Shown: piece by piece, positions 5,597 to 10,950 of the stretch
Numbering within the stretch: position 1 is the first letter of the stretch
Layout: every line of letters begins with the position of its first letter
DNA from: an uncultured Bordetella sp.
GTDB lineage: Bacteria > Pseudomonadota > Gammaproteobacteria > Burkholderiales > SG8-39
DNA: 64,000 nucleotides
Assembly: GCA_964564865.1 (NCBI GenBank)
Contig: CAZMDA010000002.1
Coordinates: forward strand, 33,375-97,374
Direction: 5' to 3'
The notes under the pieces: generated by a model
Seen by the model: the letters and a program-made list of their open reading frames with translations, nothing else
Told to the model about the DNA's origin: nothing
Databases searched by the model: none
Position numbers and translations under genes: made by a program

Positions 5597-6214
5597 GTGC
5601 TCCTCCAGGGCGTATCGCTGGAGCTGGGCGAGGGCGAGTACGCCGCCATCGTCGGCGAGTCCGGCATCGGCAAGTCCACCCTGCTCAACATCATCGCCGG
5701 GCTGGAGCCGGCGGACGGGGGCAGCGTGCTGGTCGGCGAGGCCGACCTCGCCGCCATGGACGACGATGCGCGCACGCTGCTCAGGCGCGAGCAGTTCGGC
5801 TTCGTGTTCCAGGCCTTCCACATCCTGCCGCACCTCACCGTGGCGCAGAACGTCGGCCTGCCGCTGCTGCTGCGCGGCCGGCCGCAGGCGGAGATCGACG
5901 CCCGGACCGCCGACCTGATGGCCGCGGTGGGGCTGGCCGGGCGCGAGGCCAGCGCGCCGCGGGAGCTCTCGGGGGGCGAGCTGCAGCGCGTGGCCATCGC
6001 GCGCGCCCTGGTGGGCGACCCGAGGCTGGTGCTGGCGGACGAGCCGACCGGGAACCTGGATCCGGAGAACGCGCGCGGCGTGCTGGCGCTGCTGCGGGAG
6101 CAGGTGAAGGGGCGGGGGGCGGCCGGGATCCTCGTCACGCATTCCGAGGCCGCCGCCGCCGGGTGCGACAAGCGCTTTCGCCTGACCGCGCGCGGGCTCT
6201 CGCCGATTCCCTAG
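5597..6214 (+). CDS. ABC transporter ATP-binding protein (LolD/YbbA-like), orphan; true start probably upstream
   Basis: Walker A GESGIGKST, signature LSGGELQR, Walker B LVLADEPTGNLD. The first ATG/GTG/TTG is GTG 5597, only about 20 residues before Walker A. The open frame continues upstream as L(CTG 5555)LRLKDVSKRFGSR, which is the usual first strand of ABC ATPases. Confidence 0.75.
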   Translation: MLLQGVSLELGEGEYAAIVGESGIGKSTLLNIIAGLEPADGGSVLVGEADLAAMDDDARTLLRREQFGFVFQAFHILPHLTVAQNVGLPLLLRGRPQAEIDARTADLMAAVGLAGREASAPRELSGGELQRVAIARALVGDPRLVLADEPTGNLDPENARGVLALLREQVKGRGAAGILVTHSEAAAAGCDKRFRLTARGLSPIP

Positions 6215-7113
6215 GCGACGCGGTTCGCCAGCGCTTCGCCGCGCGCCAGGCGGCGGGCATTCTCCAGCGCCAGCCCCAGGCTGCGCGCGATCGTCTCCGG
6301 CGTGAGCCAGGCGAGGTGGGGCGAGGCGACCACGTTGGGCAGGGCGAGCAGGGGGTGCGCCGGGTTCACCGGCTCCTCGCCGAACACATCCAGGCCGGCG
6401 GCGCGCAGGTGGCCGGAGCGGAGGGCTTCCAGCAATCCGGCTTCATTCACCAATCCGCCCCGGGCGGTGTTGACGAGGATGGCGCCTTTCTTCATCCGGC
6501 GCGGATCGATCATGCCGCTCGTTTCGCTGGTCAAAGGCACATGGAGCGAGACGATGTCGGATTGCGAGAGCACGGTTTCGAGGTCGGCAGAAGACGCCGA
6601 CCTCGACCAGTAGAAAACCGTGCAGCCCATCGCCTCGAGGATCGCTTTGAGGATCTTGGGAACGGCGCCATAGCCGACCAGGCCTACGGTCCGGCCGCCC
6701 AGTTCGCCGAAACTGTCCTGCAGGTTCCAGGCTTCCAGCCAGCCTCCGGGCTTCCGCACCGCGGCATCCAGCTCGCGAATCCTTCTCAGGCAGGCGAGCA
6801 TCAGCAGCAGCGCCATCTCCGCCACCGCGCGGCTGTTGGTGCCCGGCAGGTTGCACACCGCGATGCCGCGCGCCTTGCAGGCCTCGACGTCGATGGTGTT
6901 CACGCCGCTGCCGATCTTGTGCACCAGGCGCAGCTTCGGCGCGCGGGCGATGACTTCCGCGGTCACCGGCTTGAGGACGTGCCAGAGGACTTCCACCTCC
7001 GGCAGCAGGCGGGCGAATGCGGCGTCGTCGCTCTCGGGGCAGAGCTCGACGCCCATGCCGGCCAGCTGCGAGCGCAGCGCGGCGCTGCCGTCGAAGTGGA
7101 ACACGATCTTCAT
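6211..7113 (-). CDS. D-isomer specific 2-hydroxyacid dehydrogenase family protein (hydroxypyruvate/glyoxylate reductase or PGDH-like)
   Basis: 300 aa from ATG 7113 (MKIVFHFDGS..). NAD motif GLVGYGAVP, and RGGLVNE..HLRAAGLDVF..PHLAW. The ATG overlaps the enolase-like stop (ATGA at 7110-7113). Confidence 0.85.
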   Translation of the reverse strand: MKIVFHFDGSAALRSQLAGMGVELCPESDDAAFARLLPEVEVLWHVLKPVTAEVIARAPKLRLVHKIGSGVNTIDVEACKARGIAVCNLPGTNSRAVAEMALLLMLACLRRIRELDAAVRKPGGWLEAWNLQDSFGELGGRTVGLVGYGAVPKILKAILEAMGCTVFYWSRSASSADLETVLSQSDIVSLHVPLTSETSGMIDPRRMKKGAILVNTARGGLVNEAGLLEALRSGHLRAAGLDVFGEEPVNPAHPLLALPNVVASPHLAWLTPETIARSLGLALENARRLARGEALANRVA

Positions 7114-8369
7114 TTCTGGCCCAGGCGGCGAAAGAGCTTGCGCGCCGGGTAGGGCAGGGCGGCGGCGCCCAGCGCTTCCTCGATGCGCAGGCCCTCGTTC
7201 CATTTCGCCATGCGCTCGGAGCGGGCGAAGCTGCCCACCTTGAGCTGCGGCACGCCCCAGCCCACGGCGAGGTGCACGATGGACACGTCCTCGGTCTCGC
7301 CGGAGCGCGCCGAGACGATGGCGCCGTAGCCGGCCGCCTTCGCCGCCTCCCAGCAGGCGAGGGTCTCGGTGAGGGTGCCGACCTGGTTGGGCTTGAGGAG
7401 CACGGTGTTGCAGGCGCCCTGCCCCGCGGCGGCGGCGACGCGCGCGGCGCTGGTGACGAAGAAGTCGTCGCCCACTACCTGCACCCGGCTGCCGGCGGTG
7501 CGGGTGAAGGAGGCCATGGCCTCGGCGTCGTGCTCGGCGAACGGGTCCTCGATGGACACGATCGGGTAGCGCTCGATCCACGAGAGCAGCATGGCGTGCA
7601 ATTGCTCGGCCGAGAGGCTGCGGTTCTCGACCGCGAGCCGGTAGCGGCCGTCCCGGTAGAACTGGTTGGCGGCGATGTCGAGCGCGATGGCGGCGTCCGT
7701 GCCGGGCTTGAAGCCGGCGTCGGCAATCGCGCCGGTCAGTTCGGCAAGGCCTTCCTCGTTGGACTTGAAGGCCGGCCACCAGCCGCCCTCGTCGGCCACG
7801 CCCTGCAGCGCGCCCTTCTTCGCCATCCGGGCGCCGGCGGCGCGGTAGATCTCCGCGGTCCATTCCAGGCTCTCGGCGAAGCTGCCGGCGCCGGTGCAGA
7901 TCACCATGTAGTCCTGGATGTCGACGCGCGCGCCGGCGTGCGCGCCGCCGCCGAAGACCTGGATCTGCGGCACCGGCAGCGCCACCTTGCGCTCGCCTGC
8001 CAGGTGCTGCCACAGGGGTCTCCTCGCCGCCGCCGCGGCCGCGTGGGCGCAGGCGAGGGACACCGCCACGATCGCGTTGCCGCCCAGCCGGCTGCGGTCG
8101 GCGGTGCCGTCCAGCTTCACCAGCCGCTCGTCCAGCGTCGCCTGGTCGCGCGGATCGCTGCCGATGAGCGCGGTGCGGATGCGGCCGTTGATCGCCGCCA
8201 CCGCCTTGGCCACGTCGATGCTCTTCGCCTCGCCGGCGCCGGTGGAGGCGCCCGCCGGGGCGATGGCGCGGCCCTGCTTGCCGTTCTTGAGCGTGATCTC
8301 CGCCTCGACGGTGGGGCGGCCGCGGGAATCCCAGACCTTGCGGCCGCGGATGTCTACGATGGTTGCCAT
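7110..8369 (-). CDS. enolase family protein (divergent phosphopyruvate hydratase paralog)
   Basis: 419-aa ORF. Enolase blocks present: DSRGRPTVEAE, GASTG, VADEGG, SIEDPFAE, VVGDDFFVT, LLKPNQVGT, SARSGETED, LKVGSFARSERMAKWN, LRIEEALG. Confidence 0.85.
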   Translation of the reverse strand: MATIVDIRGRKVWDSRGRPTVEAEITLKNGKQGRAIAPAGASTGAGEAKSIDVAKAVAAINGRIRTALIGSDPRDQATLDERLVKLDGTADRSRLGGNAIVAVSLACAHAAAAAARRPLWQHLAGERKVALPVPQIQVFGGGAHAGARVDIQDYMVICTGAGSFAESLEWTAEIYRAAGARMAKKGALQGVADEGGWWPAFKSNEEGLAELTGAIADAGFKPGTDAAIALDIAANQFYRDGRYRLAVENRSLSAEQLHAMLLSWIERYPIVSIEDPFAEHDAEAMASFTRTAGSRVQVVGDDFFVTSAARVAAAAGQGACNTVLLKPNQVGTLTETLACWEAAKAAGYGAIVSARSGETEDVSIVHLAVGWGVPQLKVGSFARSERMAKWNEGLRIEEALGAAALPYPARKLFRRLGQK

Positions 8370-9337
8370 GCCTGCCTGACCTGGTTGAGGTTCATGGGGG
8401 CGTCGCGCAGCAGCGCGCCGGCGACGGCGCGCACGCGGGCCTTCTGCTCATCGCGCTCGAGATACTCCACGGGCGACTTGCCGTCCACGCGCGCGAGCAG
8501 CAGGCCGGGGAGCAGCGAGGCGGCGCGGGCTTCCGCCGCGCCGGCCGGCTCCCAGTGCACGCCGGCGAGGTACGCCGCGCGCAGCGCGTCGAAAGATGCC
8601 AGGTAGGCAGTGGCGTGCTGCGGCCGCCACAGGCACTTCAGCAGCAGGTGGTTGAGGCAGAAGGCGAGGTCGAAGGCGGGATCGCCGTACCAGGCGCATT
8701 CCGCGTCCAGGAACACCGGGCCGCCGCGTCGCTCGCTGCCGCCGACCAGGATGTTCTTCGGGCTGACGTCGCCGTGCACCAGCGCGAGGCGCGTGGCGGC
8801 GGTTCGTTCCGCCAGCCGCGCCAGCTGCGCCGCATGCGCCGGGTGCGCGCGCGCCGTGGCGAGCAGGTAGGGCTCCAGCCGGATGGCGTGGAAGTTGGCG
8901 TCGGTGGCGAAGGCCCGCGCGATGTCCCCGCGTCCCGCGGTGGCGGCATGGATCGCGGCCAGGTCGCCGCCGACCCGGGCGGCGAAGGCGGGATCGGCGC
9001 GCCCGTCGCGCAGCTCGGCCTTCCACAGCGGCAGCCCGCCCAGGTCCTCCATGGCGAAGACGCCGGCCTCGTCGTGCGCGAGCACCCGCGGCGCGGCGCC
9101 CGGCACGGCGGCACGGGCCGCCTCCATCCAGCGCCACTCGAAGCGGTTGCGCTCCACCGGGGCTTCCCACACCTGCGCCACGCGCAGGCGCGCCAGCGCC
9201 TGCTTGACCACGATCGGCGCGCCGCCGCGCGGGCGCACGCGCCAGATGTCGGAGGACACGCCGCCGGCGAGGGCCTCGGCGGTCGGCGCCTCGTCCGCGG
9301 CCAGCAGGCCGCTCGCGCGCAGGAACGCCTGCACGCG
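8354..9337 (-). CDS. aminoglycoside phosphotransferase (APH)/methylthioribose-kinase-like small-molecule kinase; start uncertain
   Basis: Catalytic loop HGDVSPKNILV and metal-binding FLDAECAWYGDPAFDLAF. Nucleotide-loop region LAGGVSSDIWRV. GTG 9337 sits 1 nt after the pdxH stop. Alternative in-frame starts are TTG 9358 and ATG 9409. The 3' end overlaps the enolase-like start by 16 nt. Confidence 0.75.
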   Translation of the reverse strand, partial: RVQAFLRASGLLAADEAPTAEALAGGVSSDIWRVRPRGGAPIVVKQALARLRVAQVWEAPVERNRFEWRWMEAARAAVPGAAPRVLAHDEAGVFAMEDLGGLPLWKAELRDGRADPAFAARVGGDLAAIHAATAGRGDIARAFATDANFHAIRLEPYLLATARAHPAHAAQLARLAERTAATRLALVHGDVSPKNILVGGSERRGGPVFLDAECAWYGDPAFDLAFCLNHLLLKCLWRPQHATAYLASFDALRAAYLAGVHWEPAGAAEARAASLLPGLLLARVDGKSPVEYLERDEQKARVRAVAGALLRDAPMNLNQVRQAWQPS

Positions 9338-9338
9338 G

Positions 9339-9980
9339 TCAGGGAGCAAGGCGCTCAACGGTCCAGGCGGAAGCGGCCGCAGGATCCGGGCGGTACAGCA
9401 GGCGGTCATGGAGCCGGTTCTCGCGGCCCTGCCAGAACTCGATCCGGGAGGGCAGCACGCGGTAGCCGCCCCAGTGCGCCGGTCGCGGCGGGTTGTCGCC
9501 GTGCCGCGCTTTCTGCTCGGCCACGGCGCGCTCGAGCGCCTCGCGCCCCGGCACCACGGCGCTCTGCGTCGAGGCGTGCGCCGAGAGCCGGGCGCCGAGG
9601 GGGCGGCTGGCGAAGTACGCATCGGAGGCCGCCTCCGGCACCTTCTCCACCCGGCCCTCGATGCGCACCTGGCGCTCCAGCGGCGCCCAGAGGAAGACGA
9701 GGCACGCCTGCGGCCGCGCGGCAAGCTGGCGGCCCTTGCGGCTGTCGTAGTTGGTGTAGAAGACGAAGGCGCCGTCCTCGACGCCCTTGAGCAGGACGAT
9801 GCGCGCATCCGGCTCGCCCGAACCGGACACCGTGGCGAGCGTCATGGCGTTGGCGAGCGGCAGCTCCGCCGCGAGGGCCTCCCTGAACCAGAGCCCGAAC
9901 TGCGCCAGCGGATCGGGCAGGGCGTCGGCCTCGGCCAGCCCGGCGCGCATGTATTCCTGCCTCAGGTCCGCGATGTTCAC
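9339..9980 (-). CDS. pdxH: pyridoxamine 5'-phosphate oxidase
   Basis: 213-aa ORF with GTG start. PdxH-like throughout: ..[21 protein letters not shown].., [25 protein letters not shown], and the C-terminal RLAP ending. Confidence 0.9.
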
Positions 9981-9990
9981 CGGCGGATTT

Positions 9991-9996
9991 TATAAT
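9991..9996 (+). promoter_or_regulatory. perfect TATAAT hexamer 7 nt upstream of the MBL hydrolase GTG (possible -10 of a leaderless transcript)
   Basis: Read directly from the sequence. I found no convincing -35 element at 17-nt spacing. Confidence 0.3.
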
Positions 9997-10002
9997 GCGG
10001 CG

Positions 10003-10950
10003 GTGAAGCCCCCCTCGGTGTTCCACTACGGCGCCGGCATCTGCGCCGTGGACAGCGTGTTCGATCGCGAGCAGCAGACCGCGATCCACCTCGTGGTCGA
10101 GGGCGGGCGCGCGGCGATCGTGGACACCGGCACCGCGCGCGCCGCGCCCCTGGCGCTCGCCGCCCTGGCGCAGCAGGGGATCGGGCCCGATGCGGTGGAC
10201 TACGTCGTCCTCACCCACGTCCACCTGGACCACGCCGGCGGCGCCGGCGTGCTCATGGCGCAATGTCCCAATGCGCGGCTTACCGTGCACCCCAGGGGTG
10301 CGCGGCACGTCATCGACCCGTCCCGTCTCCACGCGGCGACAGTGGCGATCTATGGCGAGGCGGAGACGCGCCGGATCTACGGCACGATCCTGCCGGTGGC
10401 GCGCGAGCGGGTGCTGGAGACCCCCGAGGGCGCCGATATCGCCCTTGCCGGGCGAAGGCTGCGGTTCCTGGATGCGCCGGGCCATGCACGCCACCATGTC
10501 GTCGTGCAGGACGAGGCCACCGGCCACCTGTTCGCCGGGGACAGCTTCGGCCTGTCCTACCGGGAGCTGGACGCCGGCGGCCGCCAGTTCGCCTTCCCGA
10601 CCACCAGCCCGTCGCAGTTCGACCCCCCGGCCCTGCGCCGCACGCTGGAGCGCATGCTTGCCCTGGCGCCGGAGGCGATCTATGTCGCGCACTTCGGGCA
10701 GGTGCGGGACGCGGCGCGCCTCGGCGCCGACCTGCTGCGCCTGGTGGAGGCGCATGCCGCGCTCGGCGAGCGCTGCCGGGGCGCGGGCGAGCGCCGGTTC
10801 CCGCTGCTGAAAGAAGGCGTTACCGCGCTGGTGCTGGCCGAGCGGGCGCGCCAGGGATGGGCGGTTTCGGAGCAGCAGGCGCTGGAAATCTTCGCGCTGG
10901 ACATCGAACTGAACGCGCAGGGCCTCGACGCCTGGCTCGGCGCCGAGTGA
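10003..10950 (+). CDS. MBL-fold metallo-hydrolase
   Basis: HxHxDH motif (THVHLDHAGG), later HARHH and FAGD. In-frame GTG 10003 was chosen. ATG 9973 is also in frame but would overlap the divergent pdxH start. Confidence 0.75.
   Translation: MKPPSVFHYGAGICAVDSVFDREQQTAIHLVVEGGRAAIVDTGTARAAPLALAALAQQGIGPDAVDYVVLTHVHLDHAGGAGVLMAQCPNARLTVHPRGARHVIDPSRLHAATVAIYGEAETRRIYGTILPVARERVLETPEGADIALAGRRLRFLDAPGHARHHVVVQDEATGHLFAGDSFGLSYRELDAGGRQFAFPTTSPSQFDPPALRRTLERMLALAPEAIYVAHFGQVRDAARLGADLLRLVEAHAALGERCRGAGERRFPLLKEGVTALVLAERARQGWAVSEQQALEIFALDIELNAQGLDAWLGAE

Follow-up and report, generated by a model that had tools for sequence, protein, structure and literature searches.

A conserved MtnK-like kinase and variant enolase pair as a candidate phosphorylation-elimination module

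Enolase is among the most conserved and most confidently annotated of enzymes, and all members of the enolase family proper are usually taken to share one function. The locus described here raises the question of what reaction might be carried out by a second enolase whose gene is lodged between those of a kinase and a dehydrogenase. In the window, that is the whole stretch of 64,000 nucleotides of DNA that was analysed, these three genes and pdxH are minus-strand neighbours:

9339..9980, minus strand: pdxH, pyridoxamine/pyridoxine 5'-phosphate oxidase, 213 aa (TIGR00558)
8354..9334, minus strand: MtnK-like APH-fold small-molecule kinase, 326 aa (PF01636, predicted fold)
7110..8369, minus strand: enolase-family paralog, 419 aa (TIGR01060, Enolase_N + Enolase_C)
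6211..7113, minus strand: D-isomer-specific 2-hydroxyacid dehydrogenase (DH), 300 aa (PF00389 + PF02826)

The close packing of the four genes, as given in a preliminary description of this DNA, is borne out by the reading frames and the domain matches. The pdxH gene runs from a GTG start at 9980 to a TGA stop at 9341-9339, the enolase paralog from the ATG at 8369 to a TGA stop at 7112-7110, and DH from the ATG at 7113 to 6211; the kinase frame closes with a TAG stop at 8356-8354. Both overlaps claimed earlier are seen in these coordinates: 16 nt between kinase and enolase paralog (8354-8369), and the ATGA common to the start of DH and the stop of the enolase gene. At the remaining junction the pdxH stop at 9339 stands, but a kinase start at 9337 does not, as the kinase frame has a CGC codon there and no start codon. 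The in-frame starts are a GTG at 9334, 4 nt downstream of the pdxH stop, and TTGs at 9349 and 9358, from which the kinase gene would extend 11 or 20 nt into pdxH; we have taken the GTG at 9334, because the spacing TGA-NNNN-GTG is found again in 6 of 10 related loci and the product given by gene callers has 326 aa (P0001). The tight packing exceeds chance: the juxtaposition of kinase and enolase is kept across phyla at 45-60% protein identity.

As a unit, however, the four-gene operon is not supported by the comparison with other genomes: what is conserved at its core is the pair of kinase and enolase. These lie side by side in 14 of 14 loci from a genome search, and in 76 of 77 evaluable loci on genome contigs drawn from five phyla or classes (Burkholderiales, Alphaproteobacteria, Acidobacteriota, Methylomirabilales and Chloroflexota); one locus (L100) has a kinase without any enolase inside 8 kb. 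In Planctomycete-like genomes the pair occurs as a fused single protein of 760-810 aa, of which there are many examples; the APH domain lies at the N terminus, Enolase_N and then Enolase_C come after it, and these fusions are 53-59% identical to the concatenated pair across 97-99% of the length. Among 41 related genomes, a second enolase match is present in every one that bears the kinase, the kinase-free complete genomes have exactly one enolase each, and the paralog is confined to genomes with the kinase. Neither neighbour clustering nor the annotation of flanking genes revealed a conserved transporter, regulator or downstream enzyme beside the pair, and therefore gene context does not name the substrate; literature searches found no publication on the kinase-enolase module, nor biochemical or genetic data on any of its members.

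The dehydrogenase is a frequent but dispensable accessory of this pair. It matches PF00389 (2-Hacid_dh, 2.3e-26) and PF02826 (2-Hacid_dh_C, 2.3e-47) and falls under every NCBIfam equivalog cut-off (PGDH, glyoxylate reductase, GhrA/B, PdxB, VanH, FDH), the best score being 186 bits on PGDH versus a cut-off of 454; its nearest solved relatives include the T. thermophilus glycerate dehydrogenase/glyoxylate reductase and short PGDHs. In 29 of 80 loci a gene beside the pair belongs to a single DH orthogroup (50-89% identity), whose members also come after the fusion gene in 5 of 5 Planctomycete-like loci (50% identity, full length), so that the trio of kinase, enolase and DH does recur in other genomes and phyla. 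Other D-2-HADHs of the same genus are 35-40% identical to DH, and where same-genus genomes have the pair without an adjacent DH, there is no DH ortholog anywhere in the genome. Since DH is missing from about two thirds of the loci and from some genomes of the same genus, the step of entry from an oxo acid is not essential. One Chloroflexota locus has a PanE/ApbA 2-oxoacid reductase in the upstream place.

The enolase paralog scores 440 bits on TIGR01060 (cut-off 300), as against 650-700 bits for canonical copies from the same genomes; it matches Enolase_N (PF03952, 2.5e-37) and Enolase_C (PF00113, 5e-87), and is labelled 'phosphopyruvate hydratase' in public records. It has the same two-domain fold as canonical enolase (EC 4.2.1.11; E. 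coli Eno, PDB 1E9I/3H8A; yeast Eno1), with about 45% identity to E. coli Eno (E 3e-105). Like the canonical enzyme, 65 of 65 paralogs keep S39, H159, Q167, E211, D246, E295, D320, K345, R374, S375 and K396 (yeast numbering), which include the metal ligands (the three Mg ligands D246, E295 and D320, and S39), the general base K345, the general acid E211 and the phosphate-binding R374 and S375. Unlike the canonical enzyme, they carry the family-wide signature E168D, H373A and PSGAS>PAGAS: Asp stands at Glu168 and Ala at His373 in all 65, whereas 18 of 18 canonical enolases have Glu and His. Besides positions 168 and 373, about 15 others are family-specific; further paralog-specific changes include A213W, T394V, G207A, N155G and M151I. 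A single branch with 100/100 support separates paralogs from canonical enolases, and the paralog is always a second copy beside canonical eno, linked or fused to the kinase. In E. coli enolase, Glu167, His369 and Lys392 hydrogen-bond a hydroxyl that mimics the C3-OH of 2-PGA, and Glu167 and His369 are the residues that bind the key hydroxyl of SF2312 (PMC6863902). These two residues correspond to the yeast-numbered E168 and H373 changed in the paralogs; the earlier argument that an altered active site speaks for a substrate other than 2-PG is thus reinforced, the changed residues being exactly those that contact the C3-OH. A precedent within the enolase family for a 2-O-substituted glycerate other than 2-PG is the carboxyphosphonoenolpyruvate-forming homologue of the phosphinothricin pathway; in contrast to that system, no phosphonate genes (PEP mutase set) are found consistently near the kinase-enolase pair. 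A neighbour of the PEP_mutase/ICL family was seen at a single locus (L044).

The kinase matches APH (PF01636) at 3e-18, and this general superfamily model is the only one whose cut-off it passes: it scores 62 bits on TIGR01767 (MTRK; cut-off 275) and 27 bits on the APH(3') model NF033068 (cut-off 205). An aminoglycoside kinase and a true MTR kinase, both of which had been raised as possibilities to be checked, are ruled out by these curated cut-offs. The motifs are HGDVSPKN in the catalytic loop, DAECAWYGDPAFD (DxE) and a C-terminal RxDGKSP; HGDVSPKN, DAE and the C-terminal RxDGKSPxxY are invariant in 71 kinase sequences. For the AF2 model (pLDDT 95.4) the best PDB folds are those of MtnK (2PUL, 2OLC, 2PYW; TM 0.82-0.84 normalised to the query), which is also the only significant PDB sequence match (E 5.5e-6), and corramycin, capreomycin and macrolide kinases are weaker fold matches. 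The predicted fold is confidently MtnK-like, with the catalytic loop and the DxE motif intact. Compared with MtnK itself (B. subtilis 2OLC/2PUL; A. thaliana 2PYW), the kinase has the same HGD...N loop and DxE, but it is 16-17% identical, about 70 residues shorter and endowed with its own RxDGKSPxxY motif. The hydroxyl that MtnK phosphorylates is the anomeric one of a sugar and does not belong to a hydroxy acid; no genes of methionine salvage (mtnA and others) were seen among about 40 Pfam-annotated flanking genes or in the neighbour clusters, and the constant partner of the kinase is instead the enolase paralog. An APH/ePK-like kinase is likewise tightly paired with an elimination enzyme in the lanthipeptide dehydratase LxmK/LxmY (PDB 9DK1-3), and LxmK is among the better fold matches of the kinase model (ranks 17-20); in that system, however, the leaving group is the phosphate on a peptide Ser/Thr, whereas the enolase scaffold is built to retain the phosphate and drive out the group at C3.

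The reading that we favour, with a probability of roughly 0.55, is that kinase and variant enolase form a two-enzyme module that would phosphorylate, and then eliminate from, a substrate modified at C3. With ATP, the MtnK-like kinase would place a phosphate on the 2-hydroxyl of an (R)-2-hydroxy acid carrying a leaving group at C3, most simply OH; the variant enolase would hold the 2-phospho acid by means of its unchanged two-Mg2+, carboxylate and phosphate sites; the conserved Lys345 would take the C2 proton and the C3 group would leave with the assistance of Glu211, to give an enol phosphate, either PEP or a 3-substituted PEP. Where present, DH would convert the matching 2-oxo acid to the (R)-2-hydroxy acid. 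What we observe is how the genes are ordered, coupled and fused, that they occur together, which residues are conserved and what the fold is; from this we infer where phosphorylation takes place, in which order the steps run, and what substrate and product are like. D-glycerate/2-PG is an improbable substrate, because every member has a remodelled C3 pocket (E168D, H373A and nearby hydrophobic changes) and because the carriers have retained an ordinary enolase and an ordinary glycerate 2-kinase; it is probably a C3-modified 2-phospho acid on which the module acts. E168D is a conservative change, and together with H373A it might merely lower the activity on 2-PG, not shift the specificity. At slightly less than even odds, the enolase family proper would hold a large, phylum-spanning branch with a different substrate, and the MtnK-like kinase and enolase would make up an ATP-recoverable 'phospho-dehydratase' route from a C3-modified (R)-2-hydroxy acid, for example a C4 2,3-dihydroxy acid (2,3-dihydroxybutanoate, erythronate, threonate), to a 3-substituted phosphoenolpyruvate or, less likely, from sulfolactate to PEP and sulfite.

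By analogy, the module would share its logic (a 2-oxo acid reduced to a D-2-hydroxy acid, then phosphorylated to a 2-phospho acid and converted to an enol phosphate) with the lower part of the serine cycle and of the pathways that break down glyoxylate, tartrate and glucarate, where a glycerate 2-kinase (GckA/TtuD of the MOFRL type, or GlxK/GarK) acts together with enolase and a hydroxypyruvate reductase of the same superfamily as DH. The locus could then encode a plain glycerate route, that is a dedicated, perhaps channelled branch from hydroxypyruvate to PEP parallel to glycolysis, with the kinase as a non-orthologous D-glycerate 2-kinase, the paralog as a working 2-PG/PEP enolase and DH as a hydroxypyruvate/glycerate dehydrogenase. 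In its favour, the three activities would follow directly on one another, the paralog is above the curated eno cut-off with metal, base and acid residues all kept, the nearest solved relatives of DH are compatible with such a role, the kinase-enolase fusion would suit channelling, and scattered neighbours (a gene of the galactarate/altronate dehydratase family, a lactonase) point to sugar-acid catabolism able to end in glycerate. We nonetheless consider this route unlikely. A kinase that makes 2-PG would need only the housekeeping enolase, yet the paralog accompanies it essentially always, and both residues that hold the C3-OH are replaced in every paralog. The check for a canonical eno elsewhere in this genome found one (contig C38, 668 bits), so that the paralog is not the sole enolase; gpmA and a MOFRL glycerate 2-kinase are also present, the latter likewise in 5 of 5 other carriers, while Gly_kinase is found in 2 of these 5 and is absent from the genome under study. 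The module is therefore no replacement for the standard route, and it differs from the glycerate 2-kinase branch in the unrelated fold of its kinase, in the altered C3 pocket of its enolase and in the retention of the standard enzymes by its carriers. Of the sequence of dehydrogenase, kinase and 2-phospho-acid dehydratase that the preliminary description proposed, the trio itself is upheld by its synteny and a dehydratase acting on something other than 2-PG fits the enolase pocket, whereas the idea of a non-orthologous glycerate kinase is weakened by the presence of MOFRL in 6 of 6 carriers.

Elimination of an anionic C3 group from the 2-phospho acid would give PEP itself, either from (R)-sulfolactate through 2-phospho-3-sulfolactate, with release of sulfite, or from 3-PG through 2,3-bisphosphoglycerate, with release of phosphate; the former amounts to the ComC/ComB/ComA chemistry of coenzyme M synthesis, reversed and with a kinase. 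The C3 pocket is enlarged by H373A and E168D, the stereochemistry suits the supply of an (R)-2-hydroxy acid by a D-2-hydroxyacid dehydrogenase, and the families closest to our DH, the phosphoglycerate dehydrogenases, bind an anionic group at C3. Such a reaction is nevertheless improbable, as the pocket changes (Asp, Ala, Trp, Val, Ile) bring none of the positive charge that a sulfonate or phosphate would call for, the neighbours include no recurrent sulfite exporter, sulfite dehydrogenase or sulfonate gene, and gpmA makes a mutase bypass unneeded. APH-fold kinases commonly inactivate antibiotics, and the pair might be imagined as a cassette for resistance or target bypass, in which the kinase inactivates an enolase antimetabolite of the SF2312/phosphonate type and the variant enolase is the drug-insensitive target. 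The antibiotic kinases among the weaker fold matches would agree with this, as would the replacement of the two residues through which E. coli enolase binds the key SF2312 hydroxyl (PMC6863902). We find it very hard to sustain: the closest fold is MtnK and no antibiotic kinase, with the APH(3') score far under its cut-off, a dedicated DH partner and covalent kinase-enolase fusions fit poorly, a mobile-element context is absent and the pair is stably inherited within lineages, and E168D and H373A would be expected to harm normal catalysis too. The coupling to pdxH had also been taken as a hint of a vitamin B6 side route, with a PdxB-like DH and with kinase and enolase acting on intermediates of the 4-phosphoerythronate or 4-hydroxythreonine type. 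PdxB does belong to the same dehydrogenase superfamily as DH, and pdxH is translationally coupled to the kinase in one Burkholderiales lineage, but this is the only lineage in which they are adjacent, and none of the alphaproteobacterial, acidobacterial, Chloroflexota or Planctomycete-like loci shows the linkage; moreover, pdxH (254 bits on TIGR00558, cut-off 180) is the sole match in its genome and hence the housekeeping copy, and DH scores 91 bits on the PdxB model versus a cut-off of 434. Thus pdxH is a lineage-specific upstream neighbour outside the conserved module, and the B6 route is largely refuted by distribution, with a negligible likelihood left to it.

In hundreds of species there is a second enolase copy, which exceeds the curated cut-off and for this reason receives the name 'phosphopyruvate hydratase' from annotation pipelines, and the residue signature QD[YF]M + SARSGETED provides an immediate rule to flag misannotated enolases; direct tests are made possible by the natural fusion and by several culturable carriers (Inquilinus, Bosea, Neoroseomonas/Roseomonas). 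Should the pair act on a substrate other than glycerate, the enolase family would gain a new reaction and MtnK-like kinases a new substrate class, and common soil and freshwater bacteria would have a so far unrecognised way into central metabolism.

Read on the minus strand, the window carries four closely packed genes between positions 6211 and 9980:

9980-9339, minus strand: pdxH (NCBIfam equivalog, 254 bits against a cut-off of 180)
9334-8354, minus strand: APH-fold kinase, from a GTG start (matched by the general APH model of Pfam only)
8369-7110, minus strand: enolase-family gene (440 bits on the curated eno model, above its cut-off of 300)
7113-6211, minus strand: D-2-hydroxyacid dehydrogenase, DH (both D-2-HADH domains; no named equivalog reached)

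When the window sequence was reread, the 16-nt overlap of the kinase and enolase genes and the ATGA common to the enolase and DH genes were found exactly as in the preliminary description; the kinase start placed there at 9337 had to be moved, as there is no start codon at that position, to the GTG at 9334, 4 nt past the pdxH stop. Six of 10 related loci show the same TGA-NNNN-GTG junction; in-frame TTG codons at 9349 and 9358 are alternative starts, either of which would make the kinase gene overlap pdxH. The DH gene (stop 6213-6211) ends in a 4-nt overlap, at 6211-6214, with the 3' end of a convergent ABC ATPase gene (ORF 5597-6214), leaving no terminator space between the two, while pdxH stands head to head with a divergent MBL-fold hydrolase gene at 9973-10005, with almost zero intergenic DNA; the order MBL-pdxH-kinase-enolase is kept throughout the genus. 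An Rfam search of eight loci found no riboswitch or RNA leader, a tRNA being the sole match.

The question of a canonical eno elsewhere in the genome is settled by a gene on another contig (668 bits), which makes the window enolase a second copy. In a set of 41 related genomes, most members of the genus have the kinase, against just 2 of the 16 other families in the order. All kinase-bearing genomes of this set have two enolase matches, one canonical (650-700 bits) and one of 410-500 bits adjoining the kinase, and the complete genomes lacking the kinase have exactly one enolase each. The module is patchy in the class, since sampling 399 other genomes added only five carriers to our own. Kinase is followed by enolase in all 14 extended loci, down to 45% kinase identity, and a scan with one genome per GTDB species returned at least 590 loci, of which the best 80 were analysed. 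Kinase and enolase stand side by side in 76 of these 80; three of the others are cut by contig ends and one is truly without enolase. This last (L100:8001-8966), the only evaluable locus with a kinase and no enolase inside 8 kb, has a CaiB/BaiF-type CoA-transferase-like gene 131 nt upstream. Carriers among the best 80 loci include uncultured Burkholderiales, Alphaproteobacteria (Roseomonas/Neoroseomonas, Inquilinus, Bosea, Alsobacter, Azospirillum), Acidobacteriota (Vicinamibacterales, Bryobacterales), Methylomirabilales and Chloroflexota. The module in a record labelled 'Mycobacterium sp. KBS0706' (L093) is nearly identical to that of Inquilinus ginsengisoli (L072), the two being sister tips with a branch length of 0.037, and the organism label looks wrong.

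The two proteins also occur as one. Querying the protein collection with joined kinase and enolase sequences recovered dozens of natural proteins of 760-810 aa, with 53-59% identity over 97-99% of both halves and the domain order APH, Enolase_N, Enolase_C. In three longer fusions of 940-1004 aa (P0204, P0206, P0207) the two domains are joined by a linker of about 130-200 residues of low-complexity, Pro-rich, extensin-like sequence. Four related Planctomycete-like contigs (L130-L133) carry 3keto-disac_hyd (DUF1080) and PD40/Tricorn beta-propeller genes upstream of the fusion, the propeller gene overlapping the start of the fusion gene by 4 nt. At another fusion locus (L134:1-5945) the genes immediately upstream are rhaM (rhamnose mutarotase), those of a sugar ABC transporter and one for an FGGY kinase, neighbours that may hint at deoxy-sugar metabolism or be a coincidence.

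Our alignment, in yeast numbering, comprised 65 paralogs linked to the kinase and 18 canonical enolases. All 65 paralogs retain the Mg ligands, Ser39, His159, Gln167, Glu211, Lys345, Arg374, Ser375 and Lys396, so the parts that bind a 2-phospho-carboxylate and take off its alpha proton are intact and strongly selected. In the same 65 sequences Glu168 is replaced by Asp and His373 by Ala, residues 153 and 354 of the window enolase; PAGAS is found in 63 of the paralogs, versus PSGAS in the canonical enzymes, and the further fixed differences A213W, T394V, G207A, N155G and M151I include several changes to hydrophobic residues. In the structure of E. coli enolase with SF2312, Glu167, Lys392 and His369 hold the hydroxyl by which the ligand imitates the C3-OH of 2-PGA (PMC6863902); Glu167 and His369 of that enzyme are the two residues replaced in the paralogs. 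Judged from the alignment, the C3 pocket is rebuilt. A substrate with an anionic leaving group, of the sulfolactate or 2,3-BPG type, is to our mind improbable. In a phylogenetic tree a single branch with support 100/100 parts the paralogs from the canonical enolases, the latter sampled from Burkholderiales and E. coli only. At about 8220-8228 of the window (enolase residues 49-50), 11 residues (canonical ...LRDGDKSRFLGKG...) are missing just past active-site loop 1; a shortened loop was rejected as a family trait, the deletion being confined to 11 of the 65 paralogs, all from the Burkholderiales lineage of the window.

The best specific NCBIfam match of the kinase is methylthioribose kinase (MtnK), at 62 bits far under the cut-off of 275. 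An AlphaFold2 model built from 71 sequences (pLDDT 95.4, pTM 0.93) finds as its top PDB folds MtnK of B. subtilis and A. thaliana (TM 0.82-0.84, 16-17% identity), followed in order by the tryptamine kinase PsiK, the lanthipeptide kinase LxmK and then clearly weaker antibiotic kinases; that the module is a resistance cassette has, in our estimate, a very small chance of being correct. Residues unchanged in all 71 sequences include the catalytic loop HGDxSPKN, the DxE motif in the form DAE, several Arg and Lys residues, and a block RxDGKSPxxY at the C-terminal end. In MtnK structures the vicinal ribose hydroxyls are bound by the Glu of DxE, and by analogy the DxE of the present kinase would suit a diol-bearing substrate.

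In 29 of the best 80 loci the pair is flanked by an orthologue of the window DH (50-89% identity), placed either immediately behind the enolase or divergently ahead of the kinase, and a 2-Hacid_dh gene follows directly on the fusion gene in all five loci checked, on long Planctomycete-like contigs, so the anticipated synteny of the trio extends to other genomes. Over its full length, the DH encoded behind the fusions shares 50% identity with that of the window, whereas unrelated D-2-HADH paralogs of the same genus reach only 35-40%, which indicates that the pair is associated with a single, specific DH orthogroup in different phyla. This DH is nonetheless dispensable, as four same-genus genomes having the pair without an adjacent DH contain no DH orthologue anywhere. 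One Chloroflexota locus has, in place of the DH, a 2-oxoacid reductase of the PanE/ApbA type directly upstream. A small divergent subfamily (L087, L091 and L096, each at about 5600-8960) has the gene order DH-enolase-kinase; its enolases are 43-45% and its DHs 34-36% identical to those of the window, and the enolases retain the E168D/H373A signature.

Apart from DH, a survey of context, in which about 1,160 flanking ORFs were clustered and about 40 immediate same-strand neighbours annotated with Pfam, found no consistent transporter, regulator or downstream enzyme. The 40 or so neighbours include enzymes of organic and sugar acids (SDR, lactonase, two FAA hydrolases, galactarate/altronate dehydratase family, GFO/MocA oxidoreductase, PrpD, PEP_mutase/ICL family), a PanE-like reductase, two PhyH, assorted transporters (EamA, MatE, BT1, SSF), regulators (LysR, LacI) and many unrelated genes, which gives at most a loose organic-acid flavour. 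The preliminary description had also seen in the coupling to pdxH a possible side route of vitamin B6. This link was rejected: pdxH precedes the kinase in the Burkholderiales lineage only and is the sole pdxH of its own genome, and hence a housekeeping neighbour and no pathway partner; we leave such a route a chance of a few per cent.

The plain reading, a glycerate route with a non-orthologous kinase, is weakened. A MOFRL-type glycerate 2-kinase is present in all six carriers tested (our own genome, Roseomonas, Neoroseomonas, Inquilinus, Bosea and a Vicinamibacterales MAG), with a GlxK-type kinase in addition in two of the five other than our own, which weakens the idea that a missing glycerate kinase is being replaced. 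Nor is a phosphoglycerate-mutase bypass a necessity, an idea we rejected on finding gpmA in our own genome, where no iPGM was found and none is needed. A kinase that made 2-phosphoglycerate (2-PG) could leave the following step to the housekeeping enolase, and an obligatory special enolase, sometimes even fused to it, would be superfluous. The module therefore fills no gap in the standard route, which argues for, without proving, a substrate that differs from glycerate/2-PG at C3. We regard plain glycerate as an unlikely substrate, although a better candidate than the other specific alternatives. What probability remains falls to a kinase product that is no substrate of the enolase at all.

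A full-text literature search on second enolases, gene clusters with APH and enolase, possible 2-phospho acids and resistance to enolase inhibitors returned no description of the pair, and public records name the paralog 'phosphopyruvate hydratase' or 'enolase'. The enzyme families are familiar ones, but their obligate pairing and the changed specificity pocket are undescribed. We favour, with a probability of about 0.55, a general phosphorylate-then-eliminate mechanism acting on a substrate other than 2-PG. The kinase would phosphorylate the 2-OH of an (R)-2-hydroxy acid at the expense of ATP, and the paralog would catalyse an enolase-type anti-elimination across C2-C3 to an enol phosphate; DH, where present, would supply the pathway from a 2-oxo acid. 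The ATP might conceivably be recovered from the enol phosphate through pyruvate kinase, in which case the net result would be an ATP-neutral dehydration to a 2-oxo-3-deoxy acid.
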